From the NCBI GenBank assembly GCA_027624915.1, contig JAQBTR010000002.1:30802-94801 (forward strand): a stretch of 64,000 bases of DNA, read 5' to 3'. A program made the translations under genes and the position numbers. Positions 7,491 to 18,972 of the stretch are shown here, one piece after another. The notes below the pieces were generated by a model that saw only the letters and a program-made list of their open reading frames with translations, searched no databases and had not been told where the DNA came from. Each line of letters begins with the position of its first letter. The first letter of the stretch is position 1. Source of the DNA: a bacterium. GTDB taxonomy: Bacteria; Patescibacteriota; Minisyncoccia; Ryanbacterales; GWA2-47-10b.

Positions 7491-7569
7491 AGAGGGTACC
7501 CTGGGGTACAAGGTGAAGAGGGTACCCTGGGGTACAAGGTGAAGAGGGTACCCTGGGGTACAAGGTGAA
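7484..7569. repeat. tandem direct repeat, 26-bp unit x3.3 (aaggtgaagagggtaccctggggtac), each unit with the palindrome GGGTACCC
   Basis: three perfect contiguous copies plus a partial one read directly from the sequence; overlaps the stop codon of the upstream gene. Confidence 0.85.
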
Positions 7570-7603
7570 TTCTGTGAATCAGAATGGGGTATAAGGTAAC
7601 ATT

Positions 7604-7888
7604 ATGACGAAGCATATACATTGGGGAATAGTTCTTGTTTTTATATACTTACTAGCTATAGTTGGTTTGTTTATTTACGCGCTTAGTTGTGATGGATTTT
7701 TGTGTGGTCTGCTTGTTGTGTGGGCGGCGGCTCCATGGTCAATACTAGCTGCCTACACAGAGATAGAAGGGAACGCCCTATCAGGCGCTCTACTCTTTTT
7801 TGGTGGAATTGTTATAAATATTTTTATTCTCTACTTTACAGGTAAGCTGCTTTCTAAAAAAAAAGTTGCTTCCCCTCAAGATGAGTGA
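7604..7888 (+). CDS. hypothetical small membrane protein
   Basis: 94-aa ORF with 3 predicted TM helices. Confidence 0.4.
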   Translation: MTKHIHWGIVLVFIYLLAIVGLFIYALSCDGFLCGLLVVWAAAPWSILAAYTEIEGNALSGALLFFGGIVINIFILYFTGKLLSKKKVASPQDE

Positions 7889-7916
7889 TAGTTTGCATAT
7901 AGAATAAGGGGTAAGC

Positions 7917-8360
7917 ATGGACTGGCCGACGTATGATGACCGGCCCATAGCCGGCTCTCTTTTGCACAGTATTCATCTGCATCTAGCAGAGCTAGAAACA
8001 CTTCTACGCCAAGTAACATTTAATTATGATGATGGTGTCTACCGTTTCTATCATGGTAGTGCCAAGGTGTTTTTTCTACAGTTTGATACAGAAAAAATGA
8101 TTGAGAGATTTTGTACTCTTTTTATTGTTCCACTCAATAAAGATTTACTAACCATTGTTGAAGATGGAACTGGATTTAAGTGGCGTCTCGGTGTCCAATT
8201 TACTCTCGATGATACACGTCGAGTGGTTGAGGCATTTTTGCATGCCAAATATTTTCTTGAGATGTTGGTGATGTCAGGCAAAGGCATTATTGGGCCACTT
8301 CCTCCGGCAACCATGCCAGCTCACTGGGCATCTGTTCTTTATCTCTATAATTTGCGTTAA
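7917..8360 (+). CDS. hypothetical protein
   Basis: 147-aa ORF with coding-like composition; no family recognised. Confidence 0.4.
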   Translation: MDWPTYDDRPIAGSLLHSIHLHLAELETLLRQVTFNYDDGVYRFYHGSAKVFFLQFDTEKMIERFCTLFIVPLNKDLLTIVEDGTGFKWRLGVQFTLDDTRRVVEAFLHAKYFLEMLVMSGKGIIGPLPPATMPAHWASVLYLYNLR

Positions 8361-8388
8361 AAAAACCACCCCAACGGGGTGTTTTTTA
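8360..8388. terminator. bidirectional rho-independent terminator
   Basis: aaaaaaCCACCCCaacGGGGTGtttttt hairpin with A-run and T-run between convergent genes. Confidence 0.6.
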
Positions 8389-9123
8389 TTTCTTCTTTTT
8401 TTCGTCCGCCACCTTCCGAAAGGCTTTTATGATGGGGGAGAGGTCTCCTTCAAGAATTTTATCTATATTATGAAACTTTTTTCCAATACGATGATCTGTG
8501 ATTCTATCTTGCATAAAATTATAGGTTCGGATTTTTTCTGAGCGGTCTTGAGTTCCAATTTGCATACGGCGGTCATCTTGTACAGAACCCGCAGCCCCTT
8601 CCTGATTAAGTTCGTGTAGTTTAGAACGTAGGATTTCCATAGCCTTTTCTCGGTTGGCAAGCTGTGTCCGTTCTGAACGAGAGTTGATCACAATACCAGT
8701 TGGCTTATGGGTAAGACGAACAGCAGATTCTACTTTGTTTACGTTTTGGCCTCCAGGGCCTCCAGCTCGAGAGAAGGACACCTCGATTTCGTCTGGGCGA
8801 ATTTCTACTTCTTTTGCCTCTACAATTTTAAGAATAGCAACAGATGCGGTTGAAGTATGAACGCGTCCTGATTTTTCAGTTTTTGGTACGCGTTGGATAC
8901 GATGTACGCCACTTTCTTGTTTGAGAGATTCATATACATCCTCACCCTTAAATTCAACAACAGCTTCTTTTATTCCACCGACTTCACTTTCTGATTCATC
9001 CACAACTCGATAGCCCCAGTTTTTTTTGCCAGCAAATTTTATGTACATGTTCTCAAGCTCTTGTGCAAAGAGAGCGGCCTCATTGCCGCCAGCACCAGCG
9101 CGAATTTCTACAACTACTTTCAT
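8386..9123 (-). CDS. prfA: class I peptide chain release factor (RF1-like PKT motif, GGQ) lacking the N-terminal domain 1
   Basis: GGQ motif, RVPKTE (PxT-type) codon-recognition motif and the conserved EIRAGAGG start of domain 2; only 245 aa, with an in-frame stop 6 codons upstream of the ATG. Confidence 0.75.
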
Positions 9124-9138
9124 ATGAGGCGCGCGAAG

Positions 9139-9381
9139 TTATTTACGAGCTCGTTTGTTTCGTTTTTGGGATACAGGCGCAGCCTTAGATGCGCGCTTCT
9201 TAAACTTATCAACGCGTCCTGCAGCATCTATAAGCTTTTCTTTTCCTGTATAGAATGGGTGACAGTTGCCACAGATTTCCACCTCAATGTCTTTTTTTGT
9301 ACTACCAATATGCATGACGTTGCCGCATGCACATTGAATTTTCGCATCTGCGAAATATTGTGGGTGAATCTCTTTTTTCAT
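9139..9381 (-). CDS. rpmE: ribosomal protein bL31
   Basis: L31 family similarity with CxxC...C zinc-binding residues. Confidence 0.85.
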
Positions 9382-9667
9382 AGGATTAAGGAATTGTTCC
9401 CAAGCTCGCTTTTGTAAGTAAAATATTCAGAGTTTGAGCGAGACGAAGAGAAAATTTTGAAGTTAATACTGGAAGTATTGCTGATACATTTTCTCAAGGT
9501 CGTAGCTAAAGCCTGGAGGTTTTGGTAGAAATGGAGTTTGTGAACAGTTCCATTAAAGGTCATAATACCACCAAATATCATCATATGCAACACCTTAGAA
9601 GTATTATGACTTGTAAACCCATATTCTTGCCAATTTGGGCTCGATTCGGTATACTAGCCCAATTGTT

Positions 9668-10405
9668 ATGAATACAACAGAAATTCCTGAAATTAAGGCA
9701 AACCCAGCGACAGAGGGGCTCTATAAGGCAGGAGTCCAGTTTGGATACTCTAAGTCTCGACGTCACCCACGTATGCGTGATTTTGTTGCGGGTGTTAAGA
9801 ATAATATTGAGGTATTTCAGCTTGATAGGGTTAAGGAAAAGATCGATGAGGCTCTAGAGTTTATAGAATCCCTCGGTGAGATGAAGGCACCAATTCTGTG
9901 GGTTGGAACAAAGCCGGCTGCCGCCCTTGCTATAAAAGAGGTAGCAGATGCTCTTGGTCATCCTTATGTAAATATACGATGGCTCGGAGGAACTCTTACA
10001 AACAACAAGAATATTAGAGGCCGTGTTACATACTGGCAGGACCTTATCTCAAAACAAAAATCAGGTGAGCTTGGTAAGTATACAAAAGCAGAGCAAGTAA
10101 GACTTCAGAAAGAGAGTGACCGATTGGCTCGCTCATTTGAAGGCCTCGTTAATCTCCAGGCAATCCCAAAGGCCATGTTTGTTATAGACTCTAAAGAAGA
10201 GGATATAGCAGTGCATGAGGCTGGCAACAAAAAGATTCCAGTAGTTGCTCTTATGAATACAGATTGTGATCCAAAGAAAGTTAAGCACGCAATTCCTGGT
10301 AACGATAATGCATCAAAGAGTATTAGGTACATTCTGGAACTAGCACAAACGGCATATATTAAAGGTACAAAAAACGCTAAAACAACAGATGACGGAAAAA
10401 ATTAG
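9668..10405 (+). CDS. rpsB: ribosomal protein uS2
   Basis: S2 signature region (HPYVNIRWLGGTLTN); TATACT -10-like box upstream of the ATG at 9668. Confidence 0.9.
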   Translation: MNTTEIPEIKANPATEGLYKAGVQFGYSKSRRHPRMRDFVAGVKNNIEVFQLDRVKEKIDEALEFIESLGEMKAPILWVGTKPAAALAIKEVADALGHPYVNIRWLGGTLTNNKNIRGRVTYWQDLISKQKSGELGKYTKAEQVRLQKESDRLARSFEGLVNLQAIPKAMFVIDSKEEDIAVHEAGNKKIPVVALMNTDCDPKKVKHAIPGNDNASKSIRYILELAQTAYIKGTKNAKTTDDGKN

Positions 10406-11621: not shown

Positions 11622-12893
11622 ATGAAGAAGAACCCGGTTGTTGTTATTTTGGGTGGCGGATACGCAGGGATTCGCGCAGCCTTAGATGTTCTGCGCAAAA
11701 CACGCGCAGATGTTATTTTGGTTGATGAAAAGACGTATCATGCATTACCGACACAGTTTTATGAGTTGGCAAGTGTATACCAAGAAGAGCCCGCACTTGA
11801 AACTCTCGAGCAAAAGAAAAAAAGGTTTCATAATCTTCTTGAGAGTGTTGCAATCCCATTTAAAACAATTTTTGGTGATAGTAATAGAATTGAATTTGTA
11901 CAAGGATCTGTGCGAGTTGTACGCCCCGATGAAAATGGAGTTTTATTGAGAGACGGTCGCAAGATTGATTTTGATTATCTTGTAGTTGCCATCGGTAGCA
12001 GAACAAATTATTTTGATATTCCACATCTTAAAGAAAATTCAATTGGGCTCAAGTCTCCCGAAGAAGCTTTGAATATTAGAAATAGAATAGATGAACTTTT
12101 TCGTAATAGTCCCAAGCATAAAAAAATTACTGTTGTCATTGGTGGGGGTGGTGTAACCGGTTGTGAATTTGCAGGAGAGGCTGTTTCGTATATGAAGAAG
12201 CTTGCCGAGCTACACCAGCATCCGATTGCCAATTGGTGTTGTTTGCTTATTGAGTCTGGAGATTCAATACTTGGTAATGCATCATTGTGGGTGCAAAAAA
12301 AAGCTCGTGCGCGCTTATCAAAACGTGGGGTTACAGTTCTTACAAAAAGTCCAATCAAAGACGTGTGGCCTGGTCTTTTACACCTTGGGGATGAAAAAAA
12401 GGCAGTTCATTTTGATTTGCTTGTCTGGACTGCTGGTGTAAAGGGTAAGTGTGAGGGCGAAATTTTAGAGCATACTAAGTTATCTGCAAAAAGTTGCATC
12501 CCCGTTGGTAAAAATTTATGTATACCCCCATGTGATAATGTTTTTGTTGTGGGGGATGTGGCAGCAACATTTGATCCCAAAACTGGAAAACCAACCCCCA
12601 TGACAGCGCAAAAGGCAGTGCATGATGGCACGTATGCGGCATATGCGATTGCAAGAAGGATTAAAAACAAAAAAGCAAAGCTGAAACCATATGTACATAA
12701 ACGCTCAGACTACATTTTTCCACTCGGAGGTAAATATGCGCTTCTTCAGACACGATGGTTACATGCAAAAGGATTTAAAATATGGCTTCTCAAATACTTT
12801 GTTTTGTTCAGGTATGTTCGCACCATATTGCCAACACATAAAGCCCTTTTATTTGTCATAAAAGGAGTACGTCTCTTTACAAAAAATGACTAA
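11622..12893 (+). CDS. FAD-dependent pyridine nucleotide-disulfide oxidoreductase, type II NADH dehydrogenase (NDH-2)-like
   Basis: two Rossmann GxGxxG motifs (ILGGGYAGI, VIGGGGVTGCEFAG); C-terminal amphipathic/hydrophobic region. Confidence 0.7.
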   Translation: MKKNPVVVILGGGYAGIRAALDVLRKTRADVILVDEKTYHALPTQFYELASVYQEEPALETLEQKKKRFHNLLESVAIPFKTIFGDSNRIEFVQGSVRVVRPDENGVLLRDGRKIDFDYLVVAIGSRTNYFDIPHLKENSIGLKSPEEALNIRNRIDELFRNSPKHKKITVVIGGGGVTGCEFAGEAVSYMKKLAELHQHPIANWCCLLIESGDSILGNASLWVQKKARARLSKRGVTVLTKSPIKDVWPGLLHLGDEKKAVHFDLLVWTAGVKGKCEGEILEHTKLSAKSCIPVGKNLCIPPCDNVFVVGDVAATFDPKTGKPTPMTAQKAVHDGTYAAYAIARRIKNKKAKLKPYVHKRSDYIFPLGGKYALLQTRWLHAKGFKIWLLKYFVLFRYVRTILPTHKALLFVIKGVRLFTKND

Positions 12894-12911
12894 ATGCCCT
12901 AGTATGGGAGC

Positions 12912-13427
12912 ATGTTAAAAATAGGAGAATTAGCCCCAGAGTTTAAGCTCGAGGGCTATCACAATGGGAAATTTAGGGACTACAACCTTAAACAATATAA
13001 GAAGAAGTGGCTTGTCATCTTTTTCTACCCTCTTGATTTTACATTTGTATGCCCAACTGAAATTAAGCAGTTTTCAAAGAAACATGATGAGTTTAAGAAG
13101 TTAAAAGCAGATGTTGTTGGTGTGTCAGTAGACTCGATTCATTCGCACAAGGCATGGGTTGAGGGGTCTTTGGGAAAGCTCAATTTTCCTTTACTTGCTG
13201 ACTTCCACAAGAAGATGGCAAGAGATTATGAAATATTACTTGATGATGAGGGAGTGGCACTTCGCGGTACGTTTATTATCGACCCATATGGAAAACTTCG
13301 TTACATGGTCGTATCTGACAATGATGTTGGACGCTCAGTAGACGAGACAATTCGAGTTCTCTCGGCACTCCAAACTGGAAAGCTTTGTCCAATTGAGTGG
13401 ACACCAGGTAAAAAGACGCTTAATTAA
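12912..13427 (+). CDS. peroxiredoxin (AhpC/TSA family, 2-Cys type)
   Basis: FFYPLDFTFVCPTE peroxidatic Cys motif and C-terminal resolving Cys (GKLCPIEW). Confidence 0.85.
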   Translation: MLKIGELAPEFKLEGYHNGKFRDYNLKQYKKKWLVIFFYPLDFTFVCPTEIKQFSKKHDEFKKLKADVVGVSVDSIHSHKAWVEGSLGKLNFPLLADFHKKMARDYEILLDDEGVALRGTFIIDPYGKLRYMVVSDNDVGRSVDETIRVLSALQTGKLCPIEWTPGKKTLN

Positions 13428-13430
13428 ACC

Positions 13431-13462
13431 TAAAAAACCGTTTAGCTTAGCGGTTTTTTGAC
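13431..13462 (+). terminator. rho-independent terminator
   Basis: aaaaaccg-tttagcttag-cggtttttt hairpin plus T-run. Confidence 0.6.
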
Positions 13463-13589
13463 GGCGACAAGACCTTGACACATATGCATAATATGTGTTA
13501 GGGTTCTTACAGAAATGGCGAGGCATTTGTTTCTCGTTATAAAGATAAGATTCCGTGACCCTACGGGTCCAGCGGAAAGGAGGACCGTA

Positions 13590-14054
13590 ATGAAGTACCT
13601 TCGAATCCCAGCGGCGATCGGGGTCGCAGTTCTGTTCACTGTTTTGGCTCTGGCTACGTCTGCACGCGCGGATGCGGATCAGGCCACGTTCGTGCCGTTC
13701 GAAGACGGCACGGGTGCTGTCGTGACCTCCGAAGGAGTTTACGGGGTCGACAAGAATCGTTCGGTGGATTCTTTCGCCTCGCTCGAAGACTCGTCACAGA
13801 ACGTGGCGATCCCGCGGTGCATGCGGTCGCGCACGGAGGCCGAGGCTGCGTGTCCCCAGTTTTTCACTTACGTGAAGCAGAACTGGTTCTGCTTCTACTG
13901 CGCGCTCTGCCAGATCCGCGCTGACAACGAAATCCTCTGTCGCGAGGAAGCCAAGCCATACATCCGTGCACGTTTCGGCATCCGTTCGTCTGGCGAAAGG
14001 GCATCATCGTCTGGTGCGATTCGCTCGGGAGGTCGGCGTCTCGGCCGGCGGTAG
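13590..14054 (+). CDS. small secreted Cys-containing protein encoded in a GC-rich (about 60% GC) island
   Basis: AAGGAGG RBS 7 nt upstream; signal peptide MKYLRIPAAIGVAVLFTVLALATSARA; GC-rich codon usage unlike the flanking DNA; own GC-rich terminator downstream. Confidence 0.55.
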   Translation: MKYLRIPAAIGVAVLFTVLALATSARADADQATFVPFEDGTGAVVTSEGVYGVDKNRSVDSFASLEDSSQNVAIPRCMRSRTEAEAACPQFFTYVKQNWFCFYCALCQIRADNEILCREEAKPYIRARFGIRSSGERASSSGAIRSGGRRLGRR

Positions 14055-14090
14055 CCAAAGCTTTGAGGGGGGGGCGAACCCCTCCCAGTC

Positions 14091-14130
14091 CAGCCCTGGA
14101 TGCGTGAGCATCCAGGGCTGTTTTCTTTTT
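14091..14130 (+). terminator. GC-rich rho-independent terminator ending the GC-rich island
   Basis: cagccctggatgc-gtga-gcatccagggctg followed by ttttcttttt. Confidence 0.7.
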
Positions 14131-14153
14131 CTATTGACTCAAAGTTTTAAAAC

Positions 14154-14169
14154 ATAGATAATCATCTAT
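14154..14169. promoter_or_regulatory. palindromic candidate operator (atagat-aatc-atctat) abutting the arsR-family start codon
   Basis: perfect 6-4-6 inverted repeat immediately 5' of the ATG at 14170; TTGACT -35-like box at 14133. Confidence 0.35.
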
Positions 14170-14448
14170 ATGTCAGTGAAAGAAAAGAATTGTGTATCGT
14201 GTTTTAAGATCTTGGCAGAACCAACACGTATTTCACTTATCAAATATTTACAATCTGGTTCATATAATGTCACCGAGATAACAAAATATTTGGGTGTAAC
14301 TCAGCCAACCGTTTCTCATCACTTAAAACTTCTTGATAAATTAGGAATGGTTACCAAAGAACCTCGTGGAAGAAAGGTTGTGTATGGTTATAACCAAGAT
14401 TATCCATGTCGTGGATGTGGAGTATTTACGCTTCCAATAAAAACATGA
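14170..14448 (+). CDS. ArsR/SmtB-family transcriptional regulator
   Basis: winged-HTH with typical ArsR region (ITKYLGVTQPTVSHHLKLLDKLGMV). Confidence 0.8.
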   Translation: MSVKEKNCVSCFKILAEPTRISLIKYLQSGSYNVTEITKYLGVTQPTVSHHLKLLDKLGMVTKEPRGRKVVYGYNQDYPCRGCGVFTLPIKT

Positions 14449-15707
14449 GCAAAGAGACTGAAATAAAAAGACGAGTATATTTAGATCATGCGGCAGCCAC
14501 TCCAATGGACTTGCGAGTAAAGGAAGCTATGGATTCATACATGACTGATGAATATGGAAATGCTGGCGGCTTGTATCGCGAGGGGCGTCGAGCAAAAGAC
14601 GGCATTGATCATGCGCGCAAAAGTCTTGCGCGTATTTTGAGTTGTCGTCCTGATGAAGTTGTTTTTACCTCTGGTGGTACCGAAGGAGATGTTCTGGCGA
14701 TTATCGGTACGGCGCGTGCCAATAAAGATCGTGGAAGTCATATAGTAACAACAACAATTGAACACCAAGCCGTCCTTGAATCATGTGAAGCTCTAGAAAA
14801 AGAAGGTTTTGAGGTGACCTATGTTGATGTTGAGCCAAATGGAGTTGTTGACCCTAAAAAGATTGAAAGCGCTTTACGTGATGATACTATTTTAGTTTCT
14901 GTTATGTATGCAAATAATGAAATAGGTACGATTCAACCCATTCGTAATATTGCAAAGATTTTGAAAGACAGAAAAATTATTTTTCATACTGATGCTTGTC
15001 AGGCATCCGAATACTTAGATTTAGACGTACAAAAACTTGGCGTAGATCTTCTTGTTTTGAACGGTTCCAAGGTGTATGGCCCAAAGGGTGTCGGTGCAGT
15101 ATTTGTTCGTAATGGGACTCGCGTGAGACCCATTCTTTTTGGTGGAGCACAAGAAGGTAAGCGGCGAGCGGGAACCGAGAATGTTCCGGGTATCGTGGGT
15201 CTTGGGCGCGCTTTAGAAATTGCCGATGAGATGAAAGTTAGAGAGGGTGCACGCCTCAGTGAACTTCGCGATTATCTGATAAGTAGAATAACGAAAGAGA
15301 TAAAGCGAACCATTTTGAATGGAGACGCAAAAGAGAGGCTTCCTAATAATGTTAATATTTCTATTCTTGATATAGAGGGGGAGGCTACTCTTTTATATCT
15401 TGATAATTACGGGATTGCTTGTTCTACGGGCTCTGCATGCACCTCGGAGAGTCTTGACCCGTCTCACGTGATTTTGGCGCTTGGTAAGCCATATGAGCAT
15501 GCACACGCATCTATTCGATTTACACTTGGGAGAGGTACTAAGAAAGAAGATTTGGATTATTTGATGGAATATCTACCGGGAGTTGTTACAACATTAAGAA
15601 AAATTTCACCAATAACAGTAGAAGAAGATGCAAAGGGTATGTCGCATCCTGAAGCATTTGCTGGAGAAAATATGAGAGTAAAAGCTAATTCTAAAAACTA
15701 TAAATAA
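14445..15707 (+). CDS. cysteine desulfurase (NifS/IscS family, PLP-dependent)
   Basis: class V aminotransferase motifs (FTSGGTE, HTDACQA, SKVYGPKG); start set at ATG 14445 overlapping the arsR stop (ATGA). Confidence 0.85.
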   Translation: MSKETEIKRRVYLDHAAATPMDLRVKEAMDSYMTDEYGNAGGLYREGRRAKDGIDHARKSLARILSCRPDEVVFTSGGTEGDVLAIIGTARANKDRGSHIVTTTIEHQAVLESCEALEKEGFEVTYVDVEPNGVVDPKKIESALRDDTILVSVMYANNEIGTIQPIRNIAKILKDRKIIFHTDACQASEYLDLDVQKLGVDLLVLNGSKVYGPKGVGAVFVRNGTRVRPILFGGAQEGKRRAGTENVPGIVGLGRALEIADEMKVREGARLSELRDYLISRITKEIKRTILNGDAKERLPNNVNISILDIEGEATLLYLDNYGIACSTGSACTSESLDPSHVILALGKPYEHAHASIRFTLGRGTKKEDLDYLMEYLPGVVTTLRKISPITVEEDAKGMSHPEAFAGENMRVKANSKNYK

Positions 15708-15708
15708 T

Positions 15709-16380
15709 ATGTCAGACAAAAAAGATTTAAAAGGAGCAGACATAGATGTCATCAATCAGTATACGGGTGAAAAATGGTATTACACAGATACTGTCAAAGA
15801 ACATTTTTTTAAACCACGCAATCTTTTACTTGATGCACCCGACGAGTCTAATTTTGATGCAAACGGTATGGTTGGTAGTCCAGCATGTGGAGATATGATG
15901 AATATGTGGATGAAGGTTGATCCTAAGACTGAGAAGATAAAAGATCTCAAGTGGAAAACTTTTGGCTGTGGTTCAGCGATTGCTGCAACCAGTATGTATT
16001 CGGTTATGCTCACAGAGGAAGGTGGTATGACCATAGAGAGCGCATTGAAGGTAAAGCCACAGCATATTATGATGAGATTAGGAGGACTCCCAAACCGAAA
16101 GATTCACTGCTCTGTACTTGCTGACAAGGCATTTCAGAAGACAGTAAATGATTACTTTCGAAAGACTGACCAGCACGACCGTATAATTACAGATGGTGCT
16201 CGTGTAGTAGACGAACGATTGAACATTACAGATAAAGATATAGAGGAGGCGGTGTTGGAGGGTGCGCAGACGCTTGAGGAGGTTCAGAAGAAATTAAAAG
16301 TAGGAGTTGGAATGTCGGAAGAGTCGGTTACCGATATCGAACAATTAATTAGATTTTATGCAGAAAAATATTATGGCTGA
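15709..16380 (+). CDS. NifU/IscU-like Fe-S cluster assembly scaffold with C-terminal extension
   Basis: three conserved scaffold Cys (SPACGDMMNMW, FGCGSAIA, HCSVLA). Confidence 0.8.
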   Translation: MSDKKDLKGADIDVINQYTGEKWYYTDTVKEHFFKPRNLLLDAPDESNFDANGMVGSPACGDMMNMWMKVDPKTEKIKDLKWKTFGCGSAIAATSMYSVMLTEEGGMTIESALKVKPQHIMMRLGGLPNRKIHCSVLADKAFQKTVNDYFRKTDQHDRIITDGARVVDERLNITDKDIEEAVLEGAQTLEEVQKKLKVGVGMSEESVTDIEQLIRFYAEKYYG

Positions 16381-16612
16381 AGAACAACAAGGACATAAAA
16401 TTGCTCGTATATATGTAGATAGAGATAAGTGTATTGGCGCTGCTTCATGTGTTGCTATTGCACCTGGCGTGTTTGAGCTTGATGATGAAAATAAGGCGGT
16501 TGTAAAAGATGAACAAGGAGCAGACGATGAAACTATTTTGCTTGCAGCACAATCATGCCCAACTCAAGCAATCGTATTATTCGACTCCGCAGGAAACCAG
16601 ATATTTCCATGA
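16373..16612 (+). CDS. small ferredoxin
   Basis: CIGAASC...CP cysteine pattern of single-cluster ferredoxins; start overlaps the nifU-like stop. Confidence 0.6.
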   Translation: MAEEQQGHKIARIYVDRDKCIGAASCVAIAPGVFELDDENKAVVKDEQGADDETILLAAQSCPTQAIVLFDSAGNQIFP

Positions 16613-16698
16613 ACGAAAACATTTTAGTTCGTAATATTGGCACAATGGCTCTTATATTAGCGGTATTACCCCTTGTGTTGTTCTAGACGTTTCCTTTC

Positions 16699-16899
16699 TT
16701 GTTGCTGGGTCTAGCAGTTGTAGGATTGGGGATAGACGAGGCGGCTAATATTTTTACTATAACTGGATGGGTTATGTTTATAGTAAGTATCATTTTAGGA
16801 GTTATTGGAATTATTAAAAAAAGAAATAGAGTTGCGGCTATTTTAGCTCTACTCATTATTGCCATTCAGCTTATACCCGCTTTTCTATATTTTACTTAA
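16699..16899 (+). CDS. hypothetical small membrane protein
   Basis: 66-aa two-TM ORF with TTG start; weak. Confidence 0.3.
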   Translation: MLLGLAVVGLGIDEAANIFTITGWVMFIVSIILGVIGIIKKRNRVAAILALLIIAIQLIPAFLYFT

Positions 16900-16910
16900 A
16901 CTAAATATTT

Positions 16911-17501
16911 ATGAAAGAAGTAAAAAAACTTAACTATACAAAATTAGATGGTATTTCAGAGAGGCAACTCTCTGAACACCATGATGTACTCTACAAAGGA
17001 TATGTAGACAAAATTAACTTTATCGATGGAGAGCTGTCAAAAATTGATCGAGAAAAAGCTAATGCAACTTTGAGCCAGCTTCGTTCGTTTAAATTAGGAG
17101 AGACGTTTGCGCTCAATGGGGTGAAGCTTCATGAAGGTTATTTTGACAACATGAAAGAGGGTGGAGAGGAGTGCGATGGTAAAATAAAAGAGCTCATAGA
17201 ACGGGACTTTGGTTCGATGGAGGCATGGGAGGAAGATTTTAAGGCAATTGGTTTGGCAGCTCGAGGGTGGGTCGTCCTAACCTATGATCTAGATGAAAAG
17301 AAACTACGAAATATCCTGTGTGACTCACATAATCAGGGTGGCGTGTGGAACGCATGTTCTTTGCTTGTAATGGATGTATATGAGCACGCATATTTTATAG
17401 ATTTCGCGACAGCACGAAAGAAATACATAGAAACATTTTTCAAGAATTTAAATTGGGCATATGTTAACGAACTCATCTCAAAATATAGAATCGAAGATTA
17501 A
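16911..17501 (+). CDS. Fe/Mn-family superoxide dismutase (divergent)
   Basis: C-terminal metal-ligand motif DVYEHAYF (DxWEHAYY-like) and N-terminal HH...Y region. Confidence 0.6.
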   Translation: MKEVKKLNYTKLDGISERQLSEHHDVLYKGYVDKINFIDGELSKIDREKANATLSQLRSFKLGETFALNGVKLHEGYFDNMKEGGEECDGKIKELIERDFGSMEAWEEDFKAIGLAARGWVVLTYDLDEKKLRNILCDSHNQGGVWNACSLLVMDVYEHAYFIDFATARKKYIETFFKNLNWAYVNELISKYRIED

Positions 17502-17709
17502 AGAACTTATTGAAACTCATGTAAAACCCATGGTGGCCCTACATCGTGGCAGTATTGAGTTTGTCTCTTTTGATGACGGCATTGTAAATGTCCGTTTAGT
17601 GGGCACATGCAAAGGATGTCCGCTTTCTCAGTTAACACTTAAGGCTGGAGTTGAAACAGTTTTGAGAGATAATTTGGAAGGAATCAGGGAAGTCCGTGCG
17701 GTCGAATAA
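17461..17709 (+). CDS. Nfu/NifU C-terminal domain Fe-S biogenesis protein
   Basis: GTCKGCPLS CxxC motif within an NifU C-terminal domain-like sequence; exact start uncertain (overlaps upstream gene). Confidence 0.6.
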   Translation: MLTNSSQNIESKIKELIETHVKPMVALHRGSIEFVSFDDGIVNVRLVGTCKGCPLSQLTLKAGVETVLRDNLEGIREVRAVE

Positions 17710-17751
17710 TCTTTACAAATCAACGGATTTAGGTTATATTAAAGAAAAGTA

Positions 17752-18972
17752 ATGGAAGACCTCAATAAATCACAACTTGTACTACTTTTTATTCTTGTAA
17801 GCGTTGTTGTCTCATTTACAACGGCTATTGTGACCGCAGCACTTTATGAACAAGCACCAGTTACCTCAATTGGACAGACAATACAGAGGGTTGTAGAAAG
17901 GGTGGTACCCATTGAGAAAGATAACACCAAAATAGTGTCCGAGGAGGATAAGATAGTACGGGTTGTAGAGGAGGTATCTCCGGCTGTAGTCAGTATTATT
18001 GCCTCAAAGGATCTTCCAGTCCTTGAGCAATGTATGGTGTCTCCATTTGGAGATGGTGACGTATTTCGTCAGTTTTTCCCCGAGCTTTTGGTTCCAAGAC
18101 TCTGTGAACGTGGAACTGAGCACAGACAAGTTTCATCTGGCTCTGGTTTTATTGTTGGGGAGGATGGACTTATAGTTACCAACCGTCACGTAGTAAAAGA
18201 TACAGAAGCTACCTACACAGCAATCCTAAATGACGGTCGCCAGTTTGAGGCGACAATTCTCGCACGAGACCCACTTGAGGATTTGGCACTGCTATCTATA
18301 GATGGAGACGGATTTTCACACTTAACTCTTGGAAATTCTAATGATGTTCGCGCTGGTCAAAGTGTCATTGCCATTGGTAATGCACTTGGAGAATTTAATA
18401 ATACAGTTTCCGTTGGAGTTGTTTCTGGTTTGCGCAGGACCATTGTTGCAGGGGGTGAAGAATTCCGTTCACTCATTCAGACAGATGCCGCTATTAATCC
18501 AGGAAATTCAGGTGGGCCACTTCTTAATCTTTCAGGACAGGTTATAGGTGTTAATACGGCCGTTGCATCAAATGCAGAAAATATTGGTTTTGCTCTACCA
18601 TCACGGATAGTCCAGAAAGATATATACGACTTAGAAAAACATGGTCGCATCGTCTACCCATACTTGGGTGTTAGGTACCGTATTCTGACGAATGAAGTTA
18701 AGGATGAACTTGGCCTACCTGTAAACTATGGAGCACTTATTGTAAGTGGAGAGAGTGGAGAGCAAGCCATATCACCTGGTTCACCGGCAGCCACATCTGG
18801 GATGAAGATTGGTGATATACTATTAGAGATAGCAAGTGAGCGCATCACACGCGATAATCCTCTTGCTGAGATTCTGCAAAAGAAGTCAATAGGTGAGAAT
18901 ATATCAATTAAGCTCCTCCGTGGAGATGAGGAAATAACAATACAACTAGCATTAGGAGAAAGAAAATTTTAA
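17752..18972 (+). CDS. htrA: HtrA/DegP-family serine protease with PDZ domain
   Basis: trypsin-like catalytic triad context (TNRHVV, DLALL, GNSGGPL) plus a C-terminal PDZ-like region; N-terminal TM anchor. Confidence 0.85.
   Translation: MEDLNKSQLVLLFILVSVVVSFTTAIVTAALYEQAPVTSIGQTIQRVVERVVPIEKDNTKIVSEEDKIVRVVEEVSPAVVSIIASKDLPVLEQCMVSPFGDGDVFRQFFPELLVPRLCERGTEHRQVSSGSGFIVGEDGLIVTNRHVVKDTEATYTAILNDGRQFEATILARDPLEDLALLSIDGDGFSHLTLGNSNDVRAGQSVIAIGNALGEFNNTVSVGVVSGLRRTIVAGGEEFRSLIQTDAAINPGNSGGPLLNLSGQVIGVNTAVASNAENIGFALPSRIVQKDIYDLEKHGRIVYPYLGVRYRILTNEVKDELGLPVNYGALIVSGESGEQAISPGSPAATSGMKIGDILLEIASERITRDNPLAEILQKKSIGENISIKLLRGDEEITIQLALGERKF

Follow-up and report, generated by a model that had tools for sequence, protein, structure and literature searches.

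The prfA locus described here raises the question of whether a bacterium can terminate translation with an RF1 that has no domain 1. Domain 1 of RF1 is helical and extends to the L11 stalk and RF3. What is known of its role (docking to the stalk, coupling to RF3, and subunit bridging) comes mainly from E. coli deletions, and to our knowledge essentially all housekeeping RF1s and RF2s studied contain it. The window, by which we mean the whole 64,000-nucleotide stretch of Ryanbacterales (Patescibacteriota) DNA that we analyzed, carries a release factor gene that the first-pass annotation read as a domain-1-less RF1, probably serving as the housekeeping factor. Profile scores, invariant residues, the position of the gene next to rpmE, and the architecture of its homologs support this reading: we consider it about 80% probable that the window gene is the organism's housekeeping RF1, a prfA ortholog that has lost its domain 1 coding DNA by deletion.

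The prfA open reading frame and its upstream limit

The prfA open reading frame (ORF) runs uninterrupted for 245 codons from an ATG start, and the conserved EIRAGAGG segment begins 5 residues after the start of the protein (Table 1). It had been proposed from the DNA alone that the protein starts at this segment, is about 110 residues shorter than canonical RF1, and retains both the PKT tripeptide and GGQ. The start and the length deficit are correct by alignment to RF1 structures, and the two motifs can be read directly as residues 80 to 82 and 124 to 126, the former corresponding to P184-V185-T186 of Thermus RF1. It had also been proposed that no alternative start exists, and we confirmed the stop codon on which that claim depends: on the minus strand, five sense codons precede the prfA ATG, and before them lies a TAA (9139-9141) that is the rpmE stop codon. 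An in-frame extension of prfA is therefore impossible, and the 15 nt from rpmE stop to prfA start leave no space for a domain 1 coding region. We found no obvious Shine-Dalgarno sequence in this spacer. A GC-rich hairpin that looks like a bidirectional intrinsic terminator separates prfA from a convergent ORF, 5 nt beyond the prfA stop.

Table 1. Features of the window discussed in the text (positions are those of the window)
Feature	Position	Strand	Basis
prfA, 245-aa RF1 made up of domains 2, 3, and 4 only	8386..9123	-	ORF, Pfam, NCBIfam, alignment
PxT "tripeptide anticodon," codons CCA AAA ACT (P80-K81-T82)	8878..8886	-	sequence read
Catalytic GGQ, codons GGA GGC CAA (G124-G125-Q126)	8746..8754	-	sequence read
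rpmE, ribosomal protein L31, 80 aa, upstream of prfA	9139..9381	-	Pfam Ribosomal_L31, E = 8e-29
Spacer from rpmE stop to prfA start, 15 nt, in frame	9124..9138	-	sequence read
GC-rich hairpin CACCCC-N3-GGGGTG, T-runs on both strands	8367..8381	.	terminator scan
ORF convergent with prfA	7917..8360		
rpsB	9635..10405		
EF-Ts, 152 aa	10389-10847	+	
Redox/Fe-S maintenance cluster	11622-18972	+	
DAO-Rieske-DM13 fusion, 902 aa	26322-29030	+	
ORF, 878 aa	29170-31806	+	
ORF, 264 aa	31867-32661	-	
ORF, 538 aa	36032-37648	+	
Alanyl-tRNA synthetase, 587 aa	42924-44687	+	

Since the sequence derives from a metagenome-assembled genome (MAG), and since the contig is not the same in NCBI and ENA around window positions 7515-7563, we considered whether the short gene might be an artefact or a gene in decay, that is, the product of mis-assembly, a frameshift, or pseudogenization. 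This is hardly credible: the window, the ENA scaffold, and a Logan contig are identical over prfA and its upstream region, with the ORF intact, and more than 140 independent homologs share the domain-1-less architecture, with a mean column identity of 71% and invariant catalytic residues. The independent Logan contig (L082) is 100% identical to the window across positions 7540-10093, and the suggestion that a sequencing error might hide an upstream extension thus fails. At the site of the NCBI/ENA difference, a 49-bp stretch (window 7515-7563) aligns twice, once on each side of about 100 unaligned bases; the upstream lytic-transglycosylase-like ORF is called as 458 aa in the ENA version versus 522 aa in the window, and prfA is unaffected.

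The encoded protein is an RF1

Among NCBIfam profiles, the window protein scores highest with prfA (341 and 330 bits), followed by prfB (230), prfH (80.6), and ArfB (56), and the prfA match spans model positions 105-344 of 347. Both prfA scores lie below the curated equivalog cutoffs (400 bits for NF001859 and 423 bits for TIGR00019). This shortfall is partly a lineage effect, because even Patescibacteria RF1s in which domain 1 is complete or largely so do not reach 400 bits (399.3 for L093 and 379.3 for L015); prfA may be systematically under-called in Patescibacteria. NCBI names these proteins only "PCRF domain-containing protein," and this, together with scores below the cutoff, means that an essential prfA can look absent in annotation.

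The Pfam RF-1 domain is complete (3-116 of 116), and the PCRF domain is matched only over positions 101-194 of 194. The protein aligns without gaps to residues 87-319 of Thermotoga RF1, 107-346 of Thermus RF1, and 112-343 of E. coli RF1, so that domain 1 (about 85 to 110 residues) is wholly missing. Identity to domains 2, 3, and 4 of canonical RF1 is 48 to 56%, and the best match among PDB sequences is Thermotoga RF1 (E = 1e-76). An AlphaFold2 model (pLDDT 81) gave ribosome-bound Thermus RF1 as its top PDB match (TM 0.73, E = 5e-29), the best-superposing Thermus chains being ones in which only domains 2 to 4 are modeled.

The ungapped alignment places window residues at an offset of +104 relative to Thermus RF1 numbering. 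G12, E15, Q77, P80, T82, R87, H89, T90, and GGQ 124-126 (Thermus G116, E119, Q181, P184, T186, R191, H193, T194, and GGQ 228-230) do not vary among the best 120 of 8000 homologs. Of these, Thermus G116, E119, Q181, P184, T186, H193, and T194 are what we take to be the stop-codon readers in the Thermus termination complex. Lys stands in the middle of PxT in 89 of the same best 120; this residue is mostly Ala, Val, or Glu in canonical forms and in forms with a domain 1 of about 80 aa.

The window protein is thus RF1 in everything but domain 1. RF2 identity was rejected on the tripeptide (PKT, not SPF) and on the profile scores, with prfB well under prfA. PrfH identity was likewise rejected, as the score is far below the TIGR03072 cutoff of 166.65 bits and the PxT loop is normal. 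In the case of ArfB, only residues 103-139, 37 residues around GGQ, match, and the window protein has a full decoding domain.

Could this protein be an omnipotent minimal factor that reads all three stop codons, leaving RF2 unneeded? We found no RF2 gene in the window (by TBLASTN), in the contig extensions, or in 80 genome and 80 metagenome loci (1.9 Mb of fetched loci), and the prevalent PxT lysine is unusual; both observations would fit such a factor. However, the two RF1-specific residues of PxT (Pro and Thr) do not vary, nor do Q77 and T90, which read the third base; the prfA score is far above that of prfB; and, with genomes of about 0.8 Mb, it is statistically unsurprising that about 1 Mb of Patescibacteria DNA should contain no RF2 gene. 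As the RF1-specific readers are invariant, omnipotence is not supported, and we consider it highly improbable. A search of IMG/VR viral contigs for RF2 returned phage or giant-virus release factors only, and the supplement of a prfB-frameshift survey does not mention Patescibacteria.

prfA occupies the ancestral slot next to rpmE

A co-directional rpmE lies directly upstream of the RF1 gene in most truncated loci that hold rpmE, in nearly all loci with the 80-aa form, and in many canonical loci, including those of cyanobacteria. By virtue of this ancestral rpmE-prfA slot, the window gene is a positional ortholog of housekeeping prfA. Between rpmE and the RF1 core lie 230 to 580 nt where domain 1 is present versus 15 to 150 nt where it is absent: the DNA coding for domain 1 is gone from this interval. 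Among truncated loci, the spacer between the two genes can be anything from −1 to 152 nt long, with all three frames represented, and the in-frame arrangement in the window is therefore without significance. We also rejected an L31-RF1 read-through fusion, since neither frame nor spacer length is conserved among truncated loci, and a conserved partner gene beside truncated prfA, since the neighboring uncharacterized ORFs (147, 94, and 140 aa) have no homolog in the other loci.

Position bears on a further alternative, raised in the first-pass annotation: that the gene is an accessory paralog (a PrfH- or ArfB-like rescue factor or a specialized release factor) and that a full-length prfA lies elsewhere. 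The known bacterial release factor homologs without domain 1, PrfH and ArfB, are indeed accessory factors (PMC1586002, PMC6514570), and only about 84 kb of the genome was inspected. A paralog is nonetheless unlikely. The RF1, RF2, and PrfH profiles, against which alignment had been proposed, place the protein with RF1 (prfA 341 bits versus prfB 230, prfH 81 [cutoff 167], and ArfB 56), its RF1 decoding loop is unaltered, and it sits in the ancestral prfA slot. No RtcB family gene is listed within ±10 kb of prfA, none of the 165 fetched loci contains a second release factor gene, and in the trees described below the gene nests among Patescibacteria RF1 orthologs, to which it is linked by forms of intermediate length. 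We reject the PrfH- or ArfB-like assignment, and the genome, of which roughly 84 kb was read, probably has no second, full-length prfA.

The truncated form is a clade character

The first-pass annotation had asked whether relatives are similarly truncated, and they are. We searched a collection of 5.8 billion proteins and examined the best 120 of 8000 matches: these share 65 to 76% identity with the window protein and are 232 to 257 aa long, with the exception of one 323-aa entry, and those that carry names are assigned to Patescibacteria, Ryanbacteria, or Paceibacterota. In the longer homologs (323, 257, 255, and 253 aa), the start proved to be miscalled, so that the frame reads through noncoding sequence. 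Conversely, several seemingly truncated representatives of 260 to 276 aa are fragments of canonical RF1 that start in the "...LPRDPND..." linker, and these were set aside.

At the DNA level, we sampled 154 loci from GTDB species genomes and JGI metagenomes. In 23 of these, as in the window, there are too few upstream in-frame codons to encode domain 1; 45 encode a domain 1 of about 80 aa, and 77 encode canonical RF1, including loci from cyanobacteria, Bacteroidota, and Ignavibacteria. The truncated set includes MAGs of Jorgensenbacteria and Liptonbacteria as well as a closed chromosome of 829 kb (L001, OY970354.1). Only six core positions separate truncated from canonical proteins (for example, T117F and A123P, the latter immediately preceding GGQ), and truncated proteins have a C-terminal tail shorter by about 10 residues. 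In the open literature on CPR release factors and ribosomes and on release factor evolution, and in a perspective on Patescibacteria, we found no prior description of an RF1 with absent or reduced domain 1 in CPR bacteria.

Domain 1 appears to have eroded repeatedly

Related Patescibacteria display a graded series, in which the length of domain 1 falls from about 110 aa through about 80 aa (in most Parcubacteria) to 55 aa, 27 aa, and finally none. The start of the Pfam PCRF match moves accordingly, from position 1 or 2 in canonical RF1s (L064 and L093) to 37 in a form with a domain 1 of about 80 aa (L015, RAAC4_OD1_1), 69 where the N-terminal region has 55 aa (L021), 96 where it has 27 aa (L011), and 99 to 101 in truncated proteins (L001 and the window). 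Locus L121 holds a decaying remnant of domain 1. Two other loci were rejected as intermediate or long forms: L100 is an ordinary 80-aa form whose start codon is not ATG, and L009 is truncated, its upstream reading being spurious.

We built simple neighbor-joining distance trees with 100 bootstraps. L124 groups with the 80-aa form L033 (94%), L021 groups with L044 (87%), and L011 falls inside a clade of 80-aa forms (99%); the main truncated clade, which holds the window gene, has 65% bootstrap support. None of the 100 replicates (0/100) recovered one common origin for all reductions. To the extent that such trees can be trusted, these groupings indicate at least four independent erosions of domain 1. 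Lineage-wide loss within a pattern of repeated erosion points to relaxed selection on domain 1 in small-genome Parcubacteria/Paceibacteria.

In L005, L011, L088, and L090, a peptide of 24 to 29 residues rich in Q, N, K, and W replaces domain 1 (examples are "MSDQQYDWKQWQNYQKPK..." and "MDWQEWKKSQANVE..."). L005 and L011 have a DWxxW motif in common, though they lie in different tree clades.

Domain 1 is structurally independent, helical, and flexibly attached (PMC1586002), and it is physically conceivable that it is made as a separate small protein from a split gene and associates with the core in trans. We searched for such a gene using two domain 1 HMMs, built from 72 diverse RF1s and from 53 Patescibacteria RF1s; as a control, they detect domain 1 in distant canonical RF1s with E values of 1e-5 to 1e-17. 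No stand-alone domain 1 ORF was found in 457 kb (the 64-kb window, 20 kb of extensions, and ±10 kb of about 30 truncated loci). This search covered local DNA only; still, the lack of such an ORF around the truncated genes and the partial remnants fused to the core in L021 and L121, which imply decay in place rather than relocation, make a split gene very unlikely.

Probable housekeeping role and a proposed mechanism

Returning to the reading of the window gene as housekeeping RF1, we note that TAG ends 12 of the 53 ORFs in the window, so RF1 activity is needed. TGA ends another 12; being in use as a stop codon, it requires that an RF2 be encoded elsewhere.

We propose that rpmE and prfA are transcribed as a two-gene unit that would end at the hairpin downstream of prfA. 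Translation of prfA is probably coupled to that of rpmE, because prfA starts so close behind the rpmE stop codon and lacks a clear ribosome-binding site. Judging from the invariant residues and the fold, UAA and UAG would be read via the PxT loop, the tip of helix α5 (G12 and E15), and Q77, H89, and T90, and GGQ would enter the peptidyl-transferase center and hydrolyze peptidyl-tRNA as in canonical RF1. Decoding and release should proceed, since the decoding superdomain formed by domains 2 and 4 is kept, as is domain 3. Lacking domain 1, the factor would make no contact with the L11/L7-L12 stalk region or with RF3; ribosome binding and release would thus rest on contacts of domains 2 to 4 and on spontaneous intersubunit rotation. 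In recycling, likewise, the factor would dissociate spontaneously, in a manner coupled to intersubunit rotation.

Thermus, Thermotoga, Chlamydiales, and Spirochaetes have no RF3, which is dispensable (PMC6742477). In our structure alignment, the RF1s of RF3-less Thermus and Thermotoga keep domain 1. RF3 loss alone is therefore insufficient to explain the deletion, and domain 1 has RF3-independent roles. A more sweeping proposal, which is possible but which we hold only tentatively, is that RF1 and RF2 of this clade are both domain-1-less, that RF3 is absent, and that termination runs on domains 2 to 4 and spontaneous ribosome dynamics. If this is true, the repeated erosion marks an alteration, common to the lineage, of the L11/L7-L12 stalk region or of the way it is used, and it would favor the old view of domain 1 as an accessory that the ancestral release factor acquired late.

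As a natural minimal version of an essential factor, the domain-1-less RF1 bears on what a minimal termination factor is. Together with its sister intermediates (about 80, 55, and 27 residues), the domain-1-less clade constitutes a natural experiment on domain 1 function. At a compact 245 aa, the RF1 might also be used as a scaffold in in vitro translation systems and in structural studies of CPR ribosomes.

Other features of the window

Two other translation proteins encoded in the window are short. EF-Ts, whose start overlaps the end of rpsB by 17 nt, has 152 aa, where EF-Ts is usually much longer (about 280 aa in E. coli). Alanyl-tRNA synthetase is likewise usually much longer (about 875 aa in E. 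coli) than the 587 aa found here; its Pfam matches end with tRNA_SAD at residue 581, and it appears to be without the usual C-terminal region.

The redox/Fe-S maintenance cluster comprises genes for thioredoxin-reductase-like, AhpC/peroxiredoxin, cysteine desulfurase, and NifU-type scaffold proteins, along with ferredoxin, Fe/Mn superoxide dismutase, and HtrA protease, followed by ClpB, and suggests exposure to oxygen. A 902-aa fusion combines a DAO FAD oxidoreductase, a Rieske 2Fe-2S domain, a ferric-reductase-like membrane domain, and a DM13 electron-transfer domain, an architecture that is unusual for a small-genome CPR bacterium. The ORFs of 878, 538, and 264 aa listed in Table 1 gave no Pfam match at E ≤ 1e-5.

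Comparison with known systems

The window protein shares domains 2 to 4, the decoding residues, and the rpmE neighbor with canonical RF1 (354 aa in Thermus thermophilus, 342 in Thermotoga maritima, and 360 in E. coli), from which it differs in lacking domain 1, that is, residues 1 to about 86-111. Closer at hand, the 322-aa Parcubacteria RF1 of L015 (RAAC4_OD1_1) comes from the same phylum, has the same rpmE-prfA context, and shows 55 to 60% core identity; RF1s of this type keep two-thirds of domain 1, whereas the window protein keeps none.

PrfH (RFH) resembles the window protein in lacking domain 1 while keeping a domain like that for codon recognition and GGQ (PMC1586002, PMC6514570). However, PrfH has an altered "anticodon" loop, is sporadic in distribution, and is linked to RtcB, whereas the window protein has a normal PxT and no RtcB neighbor. 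The likeness to ArfB/ICT1 (about 140 aa) is confined to the GGQ domain: ArfB/ICT1 has a basic C-terminal tail and no decoding domain, which the window protein possesses.

An RF1-like gene of 229 codons, also domain-1-less, is present on two viral contigs, IMGVR_UViG_3300013137_002967 (L170:9992-10681) and IMGVR_UViG_3300013125_000817 (L171). Its product starts with "METIIIEIRASEGG," contains PPT and GGQ, and scores 183 bits with prfA versus 79 with prfH. The gene has a single in-frame TGA, at codon 51, which suggests a phage that has a minimal RF1 of its own and for which TGA is a sense codon.

The nearest precedent is an engineered one. As described in PMC1586002, E. coli RF1 and RF2 from which domain 1 had been removed kept codon-specific release in vitro, and RF1 without domain 1 worked in vivo, with its response to RF3 abolished (Mora et al. 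2003). By that account, these constructs (Mora, Zavialov, Ehrenberg, and Buckingham 2003) have the same architecture of domains 2 to 4 as the window protein. They were, however, made in the laboratory and used in a host that has RF3, whereas the truncation in the window is natural, fixed, and conserved in its clade: a domain-1-less RF1, anticipated by laboratory truncations, is a conserved character of this group of bacteria.
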